Source: an uncultured archaeon
GTDB taxonomy: Archaea > Asgardarchaeota > Heimdallarchaeia > Heimdallarchaeales > Kariarchaeaceae
NCBI GenBank assembly: GCA_964645535.1
Contig: CAZYCQ010000060.1
Span: 1 to 19,847, forward strand
Reading direction: 5' to 3'
DNA: 19,847 nt
A program made the translations under genes and the position numbers. Shown here one piece after another: positions 7,371 to 19,489 of the stretch. The notes under the pieces are model-generated. The model made no database searches. It was given only the letters and a program-made list of their open reading frames with translations, and had not been told where the DNA came from. Position 1 is the stretch's first letter, and every line of letters starts with the position of its first letter.

Positions 7371-8021
7371 CTACAATCGCAAAACTTTCATCATGGTGAG
7401 GAATCCGTCGACTTCCCACACTTCGACGATGGCTCCTTCTTGAATGCGGTCGACAGGCACTTTTTGCAGGGGGGTCCATTGGGTGAGGATGATTTCGCGT
7501 GGTTCATTGTCGATGGAGACGGTTGCGGCGTAGGGGATGGAGAATTTTCCGGTTTTTTCGGGGCTGGTCTCCTTGGCATCGACATCGAAGTGGAATTCCT
7601 CCTTGTCGGTCAGTCCTTCTGTAGGGGGACGATATGCGAGGATTCGGTCAATGGTGACAGTATGTTTCTTGGGGGTGAATACATCGATGGTTTTCATCAG
7701 GTCGAAATCATTGGCAAGGAAGCGAGTGAAATAGTGGTCATATCCACCGACGAATTTCCATACCTCGAAGAGGGCTGCGGGGATGGACTTGTCCATTTCT
7801 TTTGAGAAAACGTAGTAGATTGCTTCAGGCACCTGATTGGTTCCATATCTGATGATGTCGCCAGCCTCCACCATTGACAGGAGTTTTTGTTTGGAGGAGA
7901 AGTCAAGGAGATCCATATGATAGAATGGGTATGGGGAATTTTTAAGGGAATCATCGCGTTCAGTTTTTTTTGGAGGGAGGAAGTTCTGCCAAGGGGGCAA
8001 CATTTCAGGAGTCATTGGCAA
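7371..8021 (-). CDS. Hypothetical protein, possible C-terminal OB-fold
   Basis: Co-oriented ORF with normal composition. The start is uncertain because the annotated 5' end lies in the tandem array. Confidence 0.7.
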   Translation of the reverse strand: MPMTPEMLPPWQNFLPPKKTERDDSLKNSPYPFYHMDLLDFSSKQKLLSMVEAGDIIRYGTNQVPEAIYYVFSKEMDKSIPAALFEVWKFVGGYDHYFTRFLANDFDLMKTIDVFTPKKHTVTIDRILAYRPPTEGLTDKEEFHFDVDAKETSPEKTGKFSIPYAATVSIDNEPREIILTQWTPLQKVPVDRIQEGAIVEVWEVDGFLTMMKVLRL

Positions 8022-8210
8022 GATTGAGGGGTCATTCCTAACATCCAGGAGTCATTGGCAAGATTGAGAGGTACATTCAGGAGTCACAGCCAACATTCTG
8101 GATTAATCGCAACATTTCAGGTATCATATCCAATATTCTGACATCATCCTCGACATTCAGGAGCCATTCCCACCACACAGGAGTCATTCCCAATATTCAG
8201 GCGTCAATCC
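7998..8210. repeat. Degenerate tandem array, 20-bp period, about 11 units, consensus CAGGAGTCATTCCCAACATT
   Basis: Units start at 8006, 8026, 8046, 8066 (12-nt truncated), 8078, 8098, 8118, 8138, 8158, 8178 and 8198. An exact 23-mer occurs at 8006 and 8046. Confidence 0.9.
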
Positions 8211-11702: not shown

Positions 11703-12348
11703 TCACCTCTCCACTTTGAACCAGTCGTCTGAAACCTTGAACTTGAGACGACGGCGACGCAACTTCCGAAAAAGAAACAGCGAAACGACCATGCCAATGA
11801 ACCAGATCAAGGAATCCTTCACCCGATTAAGGAAGAAAAGATCCCCTCCAGCAATGAGAAGCCGTTTTTTGACCATGGTAATCCCCACGCTCTCGGTCCA
11901 TTCAACATCCCTGATAAAAATGAAAACCCAAAGGGAAAGTATCCTCTGGTCACGAGAAACATTGAGAAATCCTCTGAATCTTGCCTCCACTTCACCAGTA
12001 CCAGTTAAACATTCCTGCATAACCGCGGTTACCCTTAGACCCCCTAATAAGCCATATGTCCGGTTTTGATATTCAATGCCAAGGGTCGGATGATCATTAG
12101 CCGAATTGTAGCATTTCTTGCCAGCAAAATCATAAAGACCGGTAGCTTCCAAATGTAGCCATAACCTATCCAAAGAAAGACGTTCAAGCAGTTGAATGGA
12201 AAGAGAAACGATGGAAAATTCGAACATCATCCCCTGATAGGAGGGAATGTCAAAAGTAAAAACAGATGGCTCCTTGCGAAAGATAGAGATTGGCATGGAG
12301 ACCACACCATCATTCAAACTGGAAAAATCTCCCCGAATGAAGACCGTT
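11703..12348 (-). pseudogene. C-terminal part of a membrane-anchored surface protein interrupted by the IS607-like element
   Basis: Frame is open from 12350, has no signal peptide, and ends in a hydrophobic helix plus RKLRRRR. It can be joined in frame to 17376-17737. Confidence 0.55.
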
Positions 12349-12408
12349 GGTCATAAGTGGTCGAAAATCTAGCCAAACCTTTCCAAATGCGTTCTTCCAG
12401 ACCCAACT

Positions 12409-12961
12409 ATGTATATTGGTATTGGACATGATAGCAGACTGCTGGGAGTCTCCGTCACAACGATGAGGAGGTGGGACAGAAACAGGAAATTTCCTGCAGA
12501 CAGGAGAATCAAGGGAAACCATCGTAGGTACCTGTTCTCCCGTTTCCAGCAACAGAAGGGAAACGACAGGATGGCATTCGGCTATGCTAGGGTCAGCGGG
12601 CATAAGCAAACCAAAGATCTTGAAAAACAGAAGCAATCGATACAGAATTATGCAGACAAAAACGGATATGGAGGCTGCCAGATTTTTGTGGATATTGCAT
12701 CCGGATTAAACGACCAAAGAAGAAATCTGCAAAGGCTGATCAAGACTGTTGCAATATATCAGCCAGAGGTAGTGATTGTCACCTATCACGATCGGTTGGC
12801 AAGGTTTGGCCCTGATCCGGCAGTTCTGCCAACTTTTTGGAACGTCTCAATTCACCAAAAAGAGGATCGTCCAACAGGTTCTTGTTGAGGATGTCATTGC
12901 CATCATGACCTCTTATGCGGAGAAATTGCATAGAAGGAGGCGAAAAATTCCCGCTTTATAA
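12409..12961 (+). pseudogene. tnpA: IS607-family transposase TnpA (MerR-type HTH plus serine recombinase), frameshifted
   Basis: LLGVSVTTMRRW...GNHRRY, YARVS, DIASGLN and DRLARFG in one frame. The C-terminal LVEDVIAIMTSYAEKLH is in another frame after about 12808. Confidence 0.92.
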
Positions 12962-12987
12962 ACCTAAAATGGATTCTTTCTGTTGGT

Positions 12988-15207
12988 ATGAAATCCAGAA
13001 AGTACTTACTGACCAGTGAACGCCCTATCAATCACCTGTTGGAAATCGTTGCTTTGGAGCATCCGGGGATAGGCATCCAGATCCAAAGGTCGTTGGAAAG
13101 CAAGGCCTACCCATTTTTGGTCATCTTCACATATCATGACCAAGAGGTATTTCCATCGATGGTCGAGAAGCAGATGGAAGCCATTGGTGCCAAACGTTTG
13201 CCCCCATGGATCGAATGGGCGGTCAACACACAGATTGATATCCCCTTTTCGACCATTGAACCTGTTAAACCTCCCTTATCCAAAAAAAAGAAGATCCACA
13301 AAAGGAAGCAGTTTGTCTATCGTTTTCCGGTGGAAACGCTTGAACTTGATGAAGAGCTCTCGACAAAACTGCTCTCATACAAGAGGAAACGACCCTTGAA
13401 ATCAAGTTTCAGGGCCTATCCCGATCGGGGGGCCGACAACTACTTTGACGGGTTCCCGTTCTTGCCCAAGATCCTGCAATTGGAACTCAAGCAAACCACC
13501 TACCCGTGGAGATTCGATCCGGACCTCCTCCTTCCCATCCTTCATCGTCTTTTTGCATGGTATCTGCCTTTTGAGCCCCGACCTCGCCAACGCCTGATGA
13601 TCCAGGAACTCATCGAAGGGATGACAACCCCGTTTCATCGGTCCTGCGACCATGGGGAGGGGATCATCCTCAATGCAGCGACAGGAATGGGCAAGACCAT
13701 GATCTCACTTGCCAGCCTGTTGTTCAGGAGAGGCATGATGCGATCACCGGGGCAAGTGCTCGTCTTTGTCCGTACCCATTCGCAATACTATCCCATTCTC
13801 AGGGAATTCGGCAGGATTGAACACAGGAGACTTCAGGCACCATATTCCGTCTTCAATGGCCAAGAAGGCATCGACGGGTTAGGAAAGACCTTGATTTTAC
13901 CGGTCCTCCCCAAGAAATCATTGTGCAGGATTAACGAACTTATCGGAAAGACACCTTCCACCTGTAATGGCTGTCCGCTCTATGCTAAAGGAATTAAATT
14001 CAGGAAAGAATATGCCCAGCCAGCCAATTCCGTCCAGGTTCTCCTTCGTCTGCGCAATCGGTTGATGAGCGGAGAGGATCCCTTTAGATGCACTGAAAAG
14101 CTCCTGAAGGAACAGCCCGGCTGTCCATATATGACTCGCAACGCCCTTCTGCACGAGGCGGATCTGATCATCCTTTCCCAATCATTTCTCCAAAGAGAGA
14201 AGTTTGACATCATCCACCAATATCTTCGGACGCCTCTTACTGAACTCTTGGTTCTTGTTGATGAAGCCCATCATCTTGCTTCTGCCTACCTTGAGGAACG
14301 AGACGGCAGGCACTTCACCCAAGACCGGGACATCTCCCACCTGCACCCTGCAACCACTCTGATTCTCCAATCAGGATCTTTTGTGTTCCCTACGGTCTAT
14401 CGAGGGATGTTCATGGATTACGCCCGTATCATTGAGACTGAAGGAACACGTACCAGCCTCAGTCCGCAGGTTAAGAGGTTCCAATTGGCCCTTCCCAGAC
14501 TGAACAGCAGCGAGAGACAGAGAAAGGATGGTGAGCTGTACCAAAGATATGCGGACACCGTCCTGAAGCTGTTCAGGCATGGAAAAGGACATGCCTTGGT
14601 GGTTGCCCCTTCCTATGCTTTCCTTAACCAATTACTGCACGCTTTCCTTCCGTTTCGTCCAAAATATGTGGAGCAGCCTGACACCAAAATGGAAGAGTTC
14701 AATGGTCTACTCAACGAGGAGGAACGTCAACTGGTCTTGGTCATGGCAGGGGGCAAGTTCTCCGAAGGGGTGGAATGGAGCAAGAACGGAAAGAGTCTCG
14801 TTGATCAGGTCATCTTCACCGGAATTCCCTACCTGCCGAAAAGCAGTGACCTTGAATTCCACGTAAGGACATCCTGCCTCAAAAGGATCTATGACAACAA
14901 CAGGTGCCGGCAGTCGTCTCCCAAATCAAATATGGACTTCTTTTCCATGAAGAGAGATCTCAACCTTGTCATCCCACTGATCCAGAAGATTGACCAGACC
15001 ATTGGAAGAGCCATACGTAATGCACAGGATACAGCACAGGTATGGTTCATCGATGATCGGGAAACCGATTTCTTCTACAGCTATTACAAACCGAAATTAC
15101 GGTATCGCCTTCCGAGAGGTAATTTTTCACAACATTTCTCCAAAAAGCCATTCCTCAGGGGGCAACGAAAAGAATCAGATGCTATCGACCTTTTACGCGA
15201 TTTATAA
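12988..15207 (+). CDS. XPD/Rad3/DinG-family Fe-S DEAH helicase lacking the arch domain
   Basis: Q motif PRPRQ; motif I AATGMGKT; Ia VRTHSQ; Cys cluster LC-x12-CxxC...CPY; II DEAH; III SGS; IV PSY; V GGKFSEGVE; GIPY; VI QTIGRAIR. Confidence 0.92.
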   Translation: MKSRKYLLTSERPINHLLEIVALEHPGIGIQIQRSLESKAYPFLVIFTYHDQEVFPSMVEKQMEAIGAKRLPPWIEWAVNTQIDIPFSTIEPVKPPLSKKKKIHKRKQFVYRFPVETLELDEELSTKLLSYKRKRPLKSSFRAYPDRGADNYFDGFPFLPKILQLELKQTTYPWRFDPDLLLPILHRLFAWYLPFEPRPRQRLMIQELIEGMTTPFHRSCDHGEGIILNAATGMGKTMISLASLLFRRGMMRSPGQVLVFVRTHSQYYPILREFGRIEHRRLQAPYSVFNGQEGIDGLGKTLILPVLPKKSLCRINELIGKTPSTCNGCPLYAKGIKFRKEYAQPANSVQVLLRLRNRLMSGEDPFRCTEKLLKEQPGCPYMTRNALLHEADLIILSQSFLQREKFDIIHQYLRTPLTELLVLVDEAHHLASAYLEERDGRHFTQDRDISHLHPATTLILQSGSFVFPTVYRGMFMDYARIIETEGTRTSLSPQVKRFQLALPRLNSSERQRKDGELYQRYADTVLKLFRHGKGHALVVAPSYAFLNQLLHAFLPFRPKYVEQPDTKMEEFNGLLNEEERQLVLVMAGGKFSEGVEWSKNGKSLVDQVIFTGIPYLPKSSDLEFHVRTSCLKRIYDNNRCRQSSPKSNMDFFSMKRDLNLVIPLIQKIDQTIGRAIRNAQDTAQVWFIDDRETDFFYSYYKPKLRYRLPRGNFSQHFSKKPFLRGQRKESDAIDLLRDL

Positions 15208-15208
15208 A
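15201..15208 (+). promoter_or_regulatory. TATA box for the structured leader and tnpB-like gene
   Basis: TTTATAAA overlaps the helicase stop codon, implying a transcription start near 15230 where the structured region begins. Confidence 0.45.
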
Positions 15209-15229
15209 GCTTAAATTTACATGGATAGT

Positions 15230-15470
15230 ACCTCACAAGGGAAAAGCCTGAATAATGTCGACACTGTCGAACTTTCAGGTAAGATGCAATGGAGAACATT
15301 GCCGAGAGCAGACCGCACAACTGCTCGGGTCGTAGGCATTGGGTGAAAGCTCTTGGCTACGTTGGTGCCCCGCCACTGGCCGCTTTGCGGGTAACAAATG
15401 GCCTTAAAGGACCGGTATGGTCCATGCGCTCAGTATGGGTTGGATCTGCCGGTCCAGTCCATGCTGAGGT
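15230..15470 (+). ncRNA. Putative structured ncRNA or 5' leader
   Basis: Stems at 15247-52/15274-79, 15258-62/15266-70, 15286-91/15297-302, 15306-11/15321-26, 15409-13/15419-23, and a 16-bp stem 15429-44/15453-68 containing G-U pairs. Closing pair ACCTCA/TGAGGT (15230-35/15465-70). Confidence 0.55.
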
Positions 15471-15476
15471 GACAAG

Positions 15477-17234
15477 GTGATGACAATGACAAAACGAAAG
15501 AAAAACGTCTCCTCAAAGCAATCTGACGCGTCCGGCGGTTCCGGACAAACTGCAACCTATCGTGTTCACTACAAGATTCCTGATGAAGTTTCAGACCGGA
15601 AGGAATTCCGAACGCGACTGGCCAACAAGATTAGGGATCTGAAAGAGCTGAGCTTGGCAATGGCAAACCATCCTCGAGTTCTCGAGGGCATGGAGAAATA
15701 TGTGCTTCAGAGTCCAAGGTTCTCCTTGAACAAGTTCAGAAAGACCTTTCTCAATCCCTACAAAAACGAATTCGCTCAGGTCAAGGTGAAGCTGTCCACA
15801 GGGAAGGAAATGCCACTCTATGTAGGATCCAACCTGCATGAATCCACTTTTGCATATGTCCATGGGGCATTCAAGGCAAGAGAGGTACTGAAGAGGCTTT
15901 TTCTGAAAGTGGTCAAGGACTGCGAAATCATGTTTTCCCTCTTTGGCAGGGATCCGTTTATGGGTCTAAAGCTGCGGAAAATGAAATATACAAAGGCTTT
16001 TGCCTATAATTTTGTGGTCGGTCTCGGAAGGAAGCTGGACCAGCCGATCCCCCAATTTCGGGTAGAGCCGAAGGTCATTCGTCAATGGTATGATGACCTG
16101 TTCGAGCCGAAGACGGACAATCAAAAAAAATTTCATGAACGGGCACAGGTCATGGTCGATAACCCTGGCAAGGTTATTGCTGTGCTCACTGACTTTTTCA
16201 AAGATTGTGGACTTCCTTCGGACAATTGGGAGCTGCTCAAATCGACATTGAGCCATCGGTTTCCCAAGGTCTATGCCTCTCCTTTCCGTCACCTGATCTG
16301 CTATATCGCGGTCAAGCACGGCTTTCAGCCCCAGTTTGACTTGGACAAGCTATTTCCGCGTCCCGAGTTCAACGACCTTCCCATTCAGTTGGTGATGAGT
16401 AAGAAATACGTCATCAAAAGACCGGGCAACTCGTCAGAGATGACCGAATTGGTTTGCAAAGGTAAATCTATTGACCTCATCTTCCCCAACAAAGGGAAAC
16501 CGCTGGAAGTAACTATCAAGTTCCCCAAGGCTGTTGTCAGACGCATCTGCGCAGGTGCTGTCCTGAGCAGTTTCCGGGTGGATCTTGACCGTGACGGCCA
16601 GCCGCGTATTGATGTCATCCTTAGGAAGGTGCCCTCTCCCTGGAGTACCAAACTTTGGAAGATGGAGCTGGAAAAGACTCGAGTGGTGGCTCTGGACATC
16701 AATCGGTTGGGTGAACACATGCTCTCCTTCAATCAGCCAACGGACAACAGTGTGTTCAAGGAACTAAACAGGAAATATCAGGCAGTCAGTGACCAGATCA
16801 AGCAATACAAAAGCTCAGATCACTGGCAGCTTGGTCAACTGCATAGAAGGCGGAGCAACCTGCTGAAAACGGCTCATTCATTAGTTCCGCGGTTCATTGC
16901 CAGTGTGATCGTCAACTCCGGAGCGGAGGTTCTGGTAACGGAATTTTTGACAGTCACGACACGCAAAACCAAAGGGTCTTTAGCCAAGGCAATCACGACC
17001 ATGCCTCAAAAAGAGGAGCTGATTGCCAAGGCACTAGCCATCTGCAGGAAGCTGGGTCATGCAGTCGAGCACCGGATCGTGAATCCCCGTCACGTGAATT
17101 TCAAAGTGCACTTTGGATGTGGCGGCCGTCTAGACAGGGGTCCGGGCCAATGGGATTATGCTCCCTGCAAAAGATGCGGCGAGAAAGTGAATACGCACCA
17201 GAATGCCGCAGAATTGCTCGCTGCCCGCAGTTGA
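15477..17234 (+). CDS. Large TnpB/Cas12f-like RuvC protein with altered RuvC-III
   Basis: RuvC-I VVALDIN (D407), basic bridge helix LHRRRSNLLK, RuvC-II VLVTEFL (E489), VNP, zinc finger HxxC...CxxC, and terminal THQNAAELL. GAGGTGA RBS at 15466-15472 suits ATG 15480. Confidence 0.82.
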   Translation: MMTMTKRKKNVSSKQSDASGGSGQTATYRVHYKIPDEVSDRKEFRTRLANKIRDLKELSLAMANHPRVLEGMEKYVLQSPRFSLNKFRKTFLNPYKNEFAQVKVKLSTGKEMPLYVGSNLHESTFAYVHGAFKAREVLKRLFLKVVKDCEIMFSLFGRDPFMGLKLRKMKYTKAFAYNFVVGLGRKLDQPIPQFRVEPKVIRQWYDDLFEPKTDNQKKFHERAQVMVDNPGKVIAVLTDFFKDCGLPSDNWELLKSTLSHRFPKVYASPFRHLICYIAVKHGFQPQFDLDKLFPRPEFNDLPIQLVMSKKYVIKRPGNSSEMTELVCKGKSIDLIFPNKGKPLEVTIKFPKAVVRRICAGAVLSSFRVDLDRDGQPRIDVILRKVPSPWSTKLWKMELEKTRVVALDINRLGEHMLSFNQPTDNSVFKELNRKYQAVSDQIKQYKSSDHWQLGQLHRRRSNLLKTAHSLVPRFIASVIVNSGAEVLVTEFLTVTTRKTKGSLAKAITTMPQKEELIAKALAICRKLGHAVEHRIVNPRHVNFKVHFGCGGRLDRGPGQWDYAPCKRCGEKVNTHQNAAELLAARS

Positions 17235-17375
17235 GACTTATCCTCGGATAAGAAGTTTGATAGAGCTTTCAAAATCTATCCACTCGATCGCTTCGCATGA
17301 CGGGATCGGGGTCTGCAGTCCAATTGGACAACCAATCTAAGCTGTGACAGGGGCATGCAACTGCATGGCTAGATT
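17235..17375 (+). ncRNA. Putative right-end (omega/reRNA-like) scaffold
   Basis: Hairpins at 17237-52, 17259-64/17275-80, 17318-29 and 17354-67, directly 3' of the TnpB-like gene where TnpB guide scaffolds are normally encoded. Confidence 0.45.
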
Positions 17376-17737
17376 TGGGCAGATAGTAATACATGCGTGG
17401 AATTTACAGATGTGAAAATTACTTCAAATTCCACCACCTCAAAGGAAAGACCCTGAACTGAGGAGACAGGTCGGGGAAGACATCTCTCCTGAGTTTCCCA
17501 ACCATAAAATAGCCACGGAAGGATATGCTGGGAAAAAGTTAATGAAGAAACACAATCCCTACTATTGTTGTATAAGGACGAAAACCAGAAGGACACATTA
17601 ACCATGACACGATATCGATACTGCTTGAGCCAGAAAATACGCGAATCCTCAATACGATCAACCTCAATTCGGTTGTGGTTCGTAGCTGAAACAGGAACCG
17701 TCAACAGGAAAACCAACAAGATCAACATCAGACGCAT
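17369..17737 (-). pseudogene. N-terminal part of a secreted protein, truncated at the element right end
   Basis: Signal peptide MRLMLILLVFLLTVPVSA. Its stop codon lies inside the element's terminal 11-bp repeat. Confidence 0.55.
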
Positions 17738-19397: not shown

Positions 19398-19489
19398 TGA
19401 CCCGACCGGGATTTGAACCCGGGTCGACGGGGATCTTCTCAATGAAGATTGAAAGCCCGCCATGATTGGCCGAGCTACACCATCGGGCC
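19398..19489 (-). tRNA. tRNA-Glu(UUC) with a 17-nt intron at 37/38 (intron 19433-19449)
   Basis: Acceptor GGCCCGA/TCGGGTC, anticodon stem GCGGG/CCCGT, loop CT-TTC-A^C, T arm CCGGG-TTCAAAT-CCCGG. Mature length 75 nt, no encoded CCA. Confidence 0.95.

Follow-up and report, generated by a model that had tools for sequence, protein, structure and literature searches.

The window analysed here is the whole 19,847-nucleotide stretch of contig CAZYCQ010000060.1 (assembly GCA_964645535.1), which belongs to an uncultured archaeon of the Kariarchaeaceae (Asgardarchaeota). It contains an IS607-type transposable element that carries a tnpA gene, a DinG/XPD-like helicase gene as cargo, a TnpB-like gene and a right-end region (Table 1). 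A putative leader lies in the 269-nt gap between the helicase gene and the 585-aa ORF and is the subject of this analysis. Throughout, C60 denotes the window's own contig, whilst C34, C131, C88, C90 and C100 are other contigs of the same genome.

Table 1. Features of the transposable element and of the leader upstream of its TnpB-like gene; positions are those of the window.
Feature	Position	Strand	Basis
IS607-type transposable element, ~5.06 kb	12343..17400	+	blastn against own genome; ends ± 4 bp
tnpA, IS607-type serine recombinase, 159 aa	12409..12888	+	Pfam Resolvase (2.2e-17) and MerR HTH
DinG/XPD-like helicase cargo gene, 739 aa	12988..15207	+	Pfam Helicase_C_2, ResIII, DEAD_2
TATA box TTTATAAA, predicted promoter of the leader and tnpB-like unit	15201..15208	+	sequence
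Predicted RNA 5′ end A15230 and anti-SD ACCUCA	15230..15235	+	~26 nt past TATA centre
Hairpins S1 (15246-52/15274-80, inner 15258-62/15266-70) and H2 (15286-91/15297-302)	15246..15302	+	MFE, RNAalifold
Hairpin H3, stem GAGCAG/CUGCUC, loop ACCGCACAA (15312-20)	15306..15326	+	C90 counterpart
Branched helix H4 (helix 7 of the alignment model)	15327..15371	+	C60, C34, C131
Stem H5 (CCCGC 15369-73/GCGGG 15387-91), then single-stranded UAACAA (15392-97)	15369..15397	+	sequences
Conserved GCCUUAAAGGACCG and hairpin Pa (15409-13/15419-23)	15401..15423	+	Pa in C60 and C90
Hairpin Pb, 18 bp (15429-46/15451-68), loop UGCC (15447-50)	15429..15468	+	fold
SD GAGGUGA (15466-72); second AGGUGA (15475-80); candidate starts GTG 15477, ATG 15480, ATG 15486	15466..15488	+	sequence
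TnpB-like gene, 585 aa, RuvC D407/E489/H574, HxxC...CxxC zinc motif	15477..17234	+	family profile
Right-end region, expected 3′ omega-RNA scaffold	17235..17400	+	kept in mini-elements; role expected from TnpB biology

The element was delimited by blastn against its own genome. Copies of its left end (from 12339-12343) were found on five other contigs and of its right end (to 17399-17402) on four, with different flanks, and AAATCTAGCC at the left end and GGCTAGATTT at the right end form sub-terminal inverted repeats. In-frame removal of the element restores a host ORF of ~325 aa on the opposite strand; since any in-frame excision would do the same, this test cannot fix the exact ends. The tnpA product also matches the NCBIfam model transpos_IS607 (1.4e-30) with 106.2 bits, slightly below the 110-bit cut-off. 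The helicase is additionally recognised by PADLOC as typeIV_DinG (1.5e-33), and its sole close relative among 5.8 billion proteins is the C90 paralogue described below. The 585-aa protein has no direct Pfam match, its homologues bear PF07282, and a profile built from 20 family sequences matches the IS607 TnpB structure 8iaz (E 2.4e-8) as well as ISDra2 TnpB. Moreover, D407, E489, H574 and the cysteines of the zinc motif are invariant in these 20 sequences; His in place of Asp in RuvC-III is a known trait of the large TnpB branch RIIIr-4 (PMC10691335). The hallmarks of an IS607-family element with TnpB are all found here, namely a serine-recombinase tnpA, a tnpB with RuvC and zinc motifs, defined ends and multiple copies.

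The other contigs hold relatives of differing completeness. C90 (5230-9388) carries a second trio of helicase, leader and TnpB-like gene, in which the helicase is 50% and the TnpB-like protein 33% identical to those of C60. No tnpA was found upstream of this trio, nor a recognisable right end in the remaining 233 nt of the contig, and it may be an immobilised or domesticated copy. MITE-like mini-elements are located on C34 (21254-21990), C131 (~707-1251) and C88 (~737-1281). They comprise the TATA box and the 5′ module of the leader (15213-15401, 81-83% identity), a private 195-nt linker that ends in GTATAAAGGC, and the right end, which begins exactly at the TnpB-like stop codon and is 90-95% identical; the left end is present in C34 only. 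The linker contains no trace of coding sequence from the TnpB-like, helicase or tnpA genes. Because C131 and C88 match without a difference for more than 2.7 kb, they are either a single locus that was assembled twice or the product of a recent duplication. Lastly, C100 (6250-7290) contains a copy with an internal deletion that fuses 12343-13138 to 17150-17399; besides tnpA and the right end it retains ~150 nt from the start of the helicase gene and the terminal 85 nt of the TnpB-like ORF.

A preliminary description of this DNA had proposed a densely structured RNA of ~240 nt with at least six stems, several of them containing G-U pairs, immediately upstream of the TnpB-like gene. The stems are indeed present in the sequence. 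Using RNAfold, the + strand of 15230-15470 folds at -99.4 kcal/mol compared with -79.8 ± 4.75 kcal/mol for 200 dinucleotide shuffles (z -4.13), with 0/200 shuffles reaching this stability. The reverse complement gives z -1.43, and the fold signal is therefore strand-specific and dependent on G-U pairs, as the preliminary description had argued in favour of structure at the RNA level. However, the excess stability comes almost wholly from the 3′ third. Against shuffle controls, 15401-15478 alone gives z -5.43 (z -2.72 on the - strand), whereas 15228-15402 gives z -1.66, with 12/200 shuffles equally stable, and 15326-15402 gives z 0.00. The C90 leader splits likewise, with z -6.19 for its 3′ module on the + strand and z -1.31 (+) and -1.53 (-) for its 5′ part. 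The RNA structure is genuine and strand-specific, yet smaller than the ~240 nt claimed: the region as a whole withstands the dinucleotide-shuffle control, and the 5′ 175 nt fold at chance level.

The 3′ module consists of the two hairpins Pa and Pb, and in isolation the C60 and C90 modules fold alike. Pa has the form GGACC(G)/(C)GGUCC. The 3′ arm of Pb runs into CUGAGG and so covers the GAG of the Shine-Dalgarno sequence (SD) GAGGUGA, whose first five bases have a pairing probability of 0.9-1.0 in the ensembles of both C60 and C90. The preliminary description had drawn two pairings over this ribosome-binding site. Two were found here: one is the 3′ arm of Pb, and the other is formed in the full-length MFE, where the 5′-terminal ACCUCA (15230-35) pairs with UGAGGU (15465-70). 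Equally borne out were the complementary loops GGTA and TGCC and the alternative 9-bp pairing 15409-17/15447-55, which appears in the full-length MFE. In its local 78-nt context this alternative lies 6.3 kcal/mol above the two-hairpin fold; it enters the full-length MFE because the SD is freed to pair with ACCUCA. The corresponding pairing in C90 is weaker, at 12.8 kcal/mol above the best fold, and a 5′-terminal ACUCAG is again available.

Comparison of the two lineages shows that Pb has been maintained by compensatory change. When the arms are aligned from the loop outward, 18/18 pairs are standard in both C60 and C90. At positions 9 and 11 both sides have changed in register, four further positions vary on one side and still pair through G-U, and in the outer 5 bp the 5′ arms CUCAG and ACCUC face the same CUGAGGU with the register shifted by 2 nt. 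This is a two-way comparison of two independent lineages (C60-type and C90) within one genome, between which gene conversion is possible. Moreover, the 28-nt stretch GCGGGTAACAA-N3-GCCTTAAAGGACCG is the same in C60 and C90 except at its three N positions, and has been kept whilst the flanking proteins are only 50% and 33% identical; the motif GCGGGUAACAA-N3-GCCUUAAAGGACCG is likewise identical save for three N positions. The 3′ module therefore shows what is expected of a leader that sequesters its SD, namely a stable helix that includes the downstream SD (z -5.43) and compensatory change in relatives, here from two lineages only. In C90, GAGGUGA lies 18 nt before the ATG, which is too far for a canonical SD, and the motif may therefore be conserved for another reason.

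These observations bear on two other explanations. The region could be a functionless G+C-rich spacer between the captured helicase gene and tnpB, its similarity among copies being due to gene conversion or to copying in the recent past. Being 81-95% identical, the C34 and C131/C88 copies are young and so say little about selection, and the 5′ part folds at chance level. However, the old paralogues C60 and C90 (33-50% protein identity) keep 25/28 nt, the H3 loop and a compensated 18-bp hairpin, and both 3′ modules have z below -5, so that we regard a mere spacer as improbable. Alternatively, the inverted repeats could act as DNA, either as operators for a dimeric regulator or as binding or loading sites for the recombinase or helicase. 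GGACC-N5-GGTCC (15409-23) and GGATC-N6-GGTCC (15442-55) are operator-sized palindromes and both are kept in C90. Yet Pb reaches 18 bp only via four G-U pairs, which turn into A-C mismatches in the complementary strand, none of the compensatory changes falls within the palindromic cores, and the - strand folds worse both locally (z -2.72 versus -5.43) and overall (z -1.43 versus -4.13). A role as DNA sites thus appears quite improbable.

For the 5′ module, C90 is a more informative comparison than the three C60-type copies. S1 and H2 are weakly supported, as changes among copies break their pairs as often as they keep them. For H3, the C90 counterpart is GAUGGGG-AACCGCACAA-CCCCGUC, in which the loop is kept and the stem wholly replaced yet paired; the loop sequence occurs at nine genomic sites and only those in C60 and C90 stand in leader context, within a predicted hairpin loop. 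Across the 13 pairs of H4 in C60, C34 and C131 we observed five one-sided changes that still pair, one compensatory change and one broken pair, with no clear counterpart in C90. The second pair of H5 is C-G in C60 and C90, U-A in C34 and U.G in C131, and the following GCGGGUAACAA is identical in C60, C131 and C90. Over the three C60-type copies of the 5′ part, 12 changes keep pairs, 11 break them and 3 are double. Covariation among these near-identical copies is weak, with 40/500 shuffles reaching the observed score; the covariation check suggested in the preliminary description thus finds compensatory pairs in Pb and little in the 5′ part. The remaining C90 leader could not be aligned with that of C60; the C90 leader as a whole is ~60% G+C with A+T-rich flanks.

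Further contacts of the 5′ module were also sought. A pseudoknot between the H3 loop and 15361-68 was rejected, because by inspection neither C34 nor C131 retains it. Neither the C60 nor the C90 element contains a complement of the H3 loop or of GUAACAA. Duplexes of the whole leader with the right end are energetically no better than those of shuffles, and the best ungapped helices (12 bp with G-U pairs and a perfect 10-mer) fall within the shuffle range. The 10-mer, 15344-15353/17262-17271 (TGAAAGCTCT/AGAGCTTTCA), is kept in C131 and lost in C34.

The TATA box that had been placed just upstream of the structured region is present, and the helicase stop codon sits within it. TATA boxes are found at the equivalent position in C34 (TTTTTATAG) and C90 (TTTTTAAAG). 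In C90 the helicase stop and the TATA box are separated by a T7 tract, the arrangement that would be expected of a terminator followed by a new promoter. From the usual archaeal spacing, transcription would be expected to start near A15230; at the predicted start C90 has ACUCAG in place of ACCUCA. Neither C60 nor C90 contains a T-tract between Pb and the TnpB-like ORF, so the simplest transcript would comprise the leader and the mRNA, and probably the right-end RNA too.

The leader is non-coding. ORFs in the C60 and C90 leaders share no protein similarity and C34 has a 7-nt indel. A 63-aa ORF (15289-15480) was rejected as coding because it is not conserved. The same applies to a 24-codon upstream ORF (15398-15472), which is not conserved in C34, where it stops after 5 codons, or in C90, where there is no start codon in frame. 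This upstream ORF starts at the ATG of GUAACAAAUGG, covers both hairpins and stops at the TGA inside GAGGUGA, and its translation could in principle melt Pb.

We then compared the leader with catalogued RNAs. The preliminary description had pointed to HEARO-like motifs at 15295-306 and 15356-63 and had named ribozymes and group I introns as candidates, to be checked against Rfam. An omega-RNA of the HEARO/IscB type (RF02033) would, like the leader, lie upstream of an RNA-guided nuclease gene, and IStrons carry their intron RNA 5′ of tnpB (10.1101/2023.11.20.567912), where the leader also lies. The Rfam check was run and returned nothing of the kind. No Rfam 15 family, HEARO included, matched 14900-17600 on either strand even at E ≤ 10, there was no relevant match at the gathering score in the window or at E ≤ 1 in the C90 locus or mini-element, and no group I intron core model was found in the window region, the mini-element or C90. 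Moreover, no IscB or IsrB gene adjoins the leader, as the downstream protein matches TnpB structures, and the element, which carries a TATA box itself, is oriented antisense to the host ORF that it interrupts. The resemblance to HEARO is therefore not supported, and a HEARO-type RNA, intron or other known ribozyme is highly improbable.

The TnpB-like family provides a wider context. It is small, with 226 representatives among 1.84 billion proteins, almost all in Asgard (Heimdall-type) genomes, with 48 loci in reference genomes and a presence in 27/29 genomes of one related family; tnpA adjoins the homologues in at least 12 loci. In both helicase-linked loci (C60 and C90) the 100 nt upstream of the start codon give z -4.5. 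Over the same interval, 15 family loci that lack the helicase have z between -1.45 and +1.9, showing no structured leader, and many of these loci have a TATA-like box near the start and only ~100-200 nt between tnpA and tnpB. A covariance model of the 5′ module (R1) recovered the four own-genome copies only, with none in ~80 related loci, and missed C90 as a whole. A DNA search for the leader in 60 relatives gave no match, and the 25-base conserved motif was absent from the metagenome contigs searched and, at up to 3 mismatches, from the 400 genomes of the phylum besides its own. A protein-based metagenome scan also returned no relatives, although its search patterns were probably poor. Some family members are much larger (P0026, P0030, P0044, P0047, P0051 and P0052, 1200-1800 aa); these have long N-terminal extensions and are not helicase fusions. 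P0047 and P0051 show weak MazE-like matches, consistent with the RHH/MazE association of the branch with His-type RuvC-III (PMC10691335).

At its 3′ side the element retains the usual right end. The region downstream of the TnpB-like ORF folds with z -2.5, and its terminal CATGCGT(G) is homologous to the CGTGCGT at the ends of 15 family loci. As the right end is conserved to the terminal CRTGCGT, C60 included, the guide RNA of this family most likely lies 3′. The terminus is common to the whole Asgard family, reading ...AATACATGCGTG in C60 (17389-17400) and ...CATAACGTGCGT in the others. It is preceded by a hairpin whose loop, AACGCACGU (UUCGCAUGA in C60), shares CGCA with the H3 loop; the resemblance is short and may be due to chance.

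This location matters for the scaffold or tracr-like RNA entertained in the preliminary description. The omega-RNAs (reRNAs) of TnpB elements are located downstream of tnpB, finish at the right end and take their guide from the flank (PMC8612924, PMC11061315). The leader resembles them in belonging to a TnpB-carrying IS607-type element and in being a structured non-coding RNA of 150-250 nt, but it is located 5′ of the gene instead of 3′ up to the right end, and a constant scaffold joined to a copy-specific guide is not seen. After GTAACAAATGG, C34 and C131 remain alignable with only an indel, and C60 and C90 share the next 14 nt. Together with the conserved 3′ right end and the 15 leaderless relatives, the lack of a variable guide-like segment speaks against the proposal, and the leader is probably not a new guide-RNA scaffold.

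Nevertheless, the leader or its 5′ module could be a separate trans-acting RNA, either an extra scaffold or tracr-like partner of the combined TnpB-like and helicase machinery, or a small RNA derived from the leader. It has its own TATA box, a structured leader is found only where the helicase is present, and the loop ACCGCACAA and the single-stranded UAACAA resemble recognition sites. There is also a precedent in the 5′UTR of IS200, which is processed into a regulatory RNA (PMC5435999). Moreover, the 5′ module (15213-15401) is kept at 81-83% in the TnpB-less mini-elements (C34, C131/C88), linked to the right end by the 195-nt linker, and a trans role is therefore possible. In the mini-elements, a transcript driven by the promoter and 5′ module would run through the right end, and the module may be either merely promoter-proximal RNA or trans-acting. 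However, the mini-elements derive from a single deletion event, so that its retention may be accidental. The 5′ module also folds at shuffle level (z -1.66 and 0.0 in C60, -1.31 in C90), and its copies covary only weakly. Neither a terminator ahead of the ORF nor a variable block of guide type is present, and the conserved right end of the family argues for a 3′ guide RNA. Furthermore, the 15 helicase-less relatives apparently function without a structured upstream RNA and R1 finds none in ~80 loci. On this balance a trans-acting RNA is a tentative proposal that we consider rather unlikely. A particular form of it, in which the RNA arose with the captured DinG-like helicase as a second trans component of a machine made of helicase and TnpB-like protein, for instance as a leader-derived RNA with one of these two proteins attached at its ACCGCACAA loop and UAACAA tail, is doubtful. 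Were it true, helicase action or TnpB-like synthesis would be coupled to RNP assembly, and the mini-elements would spread this RNA together with the right-end guide RNA.

Taken together, these data are best explained by a cis-acting leader. We hypothesise, with a probability of about 0.55, that the region serves the tnpB-like unit as its promoter-proximal leader (5′ UTR, ~240-255 nt) and that it hides the ribosome-binding site, limiting or gating TnpB-like synthesis. Transcription would begin near A15230, ~26 nt past the TATA box. With no terminator in between, it would read into the TnpB-like ORF and, if it behaves as in other TnpB elements, extend as far as the right-end omega-RNA. The final ~75 nt of the leader would fold into Pa and the 18-bp Pb, the 3′ arm of which would pair with the SD. 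In a second conformation GGACCGGUA would pair with UGCCGGUCC and the SD with the 5′-terminal ACCUCA. Since the ribosome-binding site would be hidden in either conformation, TnpB-like synthesis would be kept low or conditional, and an 'on' state, if any, would need a further factor. The 5′ ~175 nt would form a looser module in which hairpin H3 and stem H5 with its UAACAA tail probably bind a factor or tune the fold; this part, which the mini-elements keep although they have no TnpB-like ORF, is unexplained by the cis-acting leader. Among the roles named in the preliminary description, a translational switch is thus the one that the evidence favours, as the 3′ module sequesters the SD in two ways and is kept with compensatory changes in a paralogous locus with 33-50% protein identity.

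The closest parallel is the tnpA 5′UTR of IS200, where the SD is locked in a stem-loop (nts 69-138 of the element) that prevents 30S binding (PMC4513863). Both are leaders from the IS200/IS605/IS607 superfamily in which a stable stem-loop hides a near-perfect SD, and both are compact structured RNAs that could also exist alone. The IS200 leader, however, is bacterial (Salmonella/E. coli), shorter, and regulates tnpA alongside an antisense sRNA and Hfq, whereas the C60 leader is from an Asgard archaeon, precedes a tnpB-like gene, measures ~250 nt, offers two anti-SD pairings as alternatives and has no sequence in common with it. SD-sequestering riboswitch platforms and RNA thermometers likewise use two exclusive pairings to set access to the ribosome-binding site. 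In contrast to riboswitches, the C60 leader has no known aptamer in Rfam and both of its conformations keep the SD paired.

Descriptions of TnpB elements usually name tnpA, tnpB and a 3′ guide RNA, and the amount of TnpB protein is rarely considered. In the present Asgard archaeon, a tnpB-like gene is clearly a candidate for being controlled post-transcriptionally by its own leader, whose structured form is restricted to the lineage with the captured DinG-like helicase. Should this be confirmed, the hidden ribosome-binding-site logic of IS200 would be extended to tnpB and to archaea, and there would be a handle on the expression of helicase-carrying TnpB elements that is relevant to reconstituting the system. 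By itself the leader is a modest finding, a so far genome-restricted variant of a known regulatory principle, and the element is the more unusual of the two.

Two further features were noted elsewhere in the window. At 7998-8210 there is a degenerate intergenic tandem array with a 20-bp period, ~11 units and 59% matches, which is unrelated to the leader. A tRNA gene lies on the - strand at 19398-19489 (Rfam, 44.7 bits), ~2 kb past the right end of the element; the match spans 92 nt compared with 71 model positions, and an intron or a long variable arm is therefore possible.
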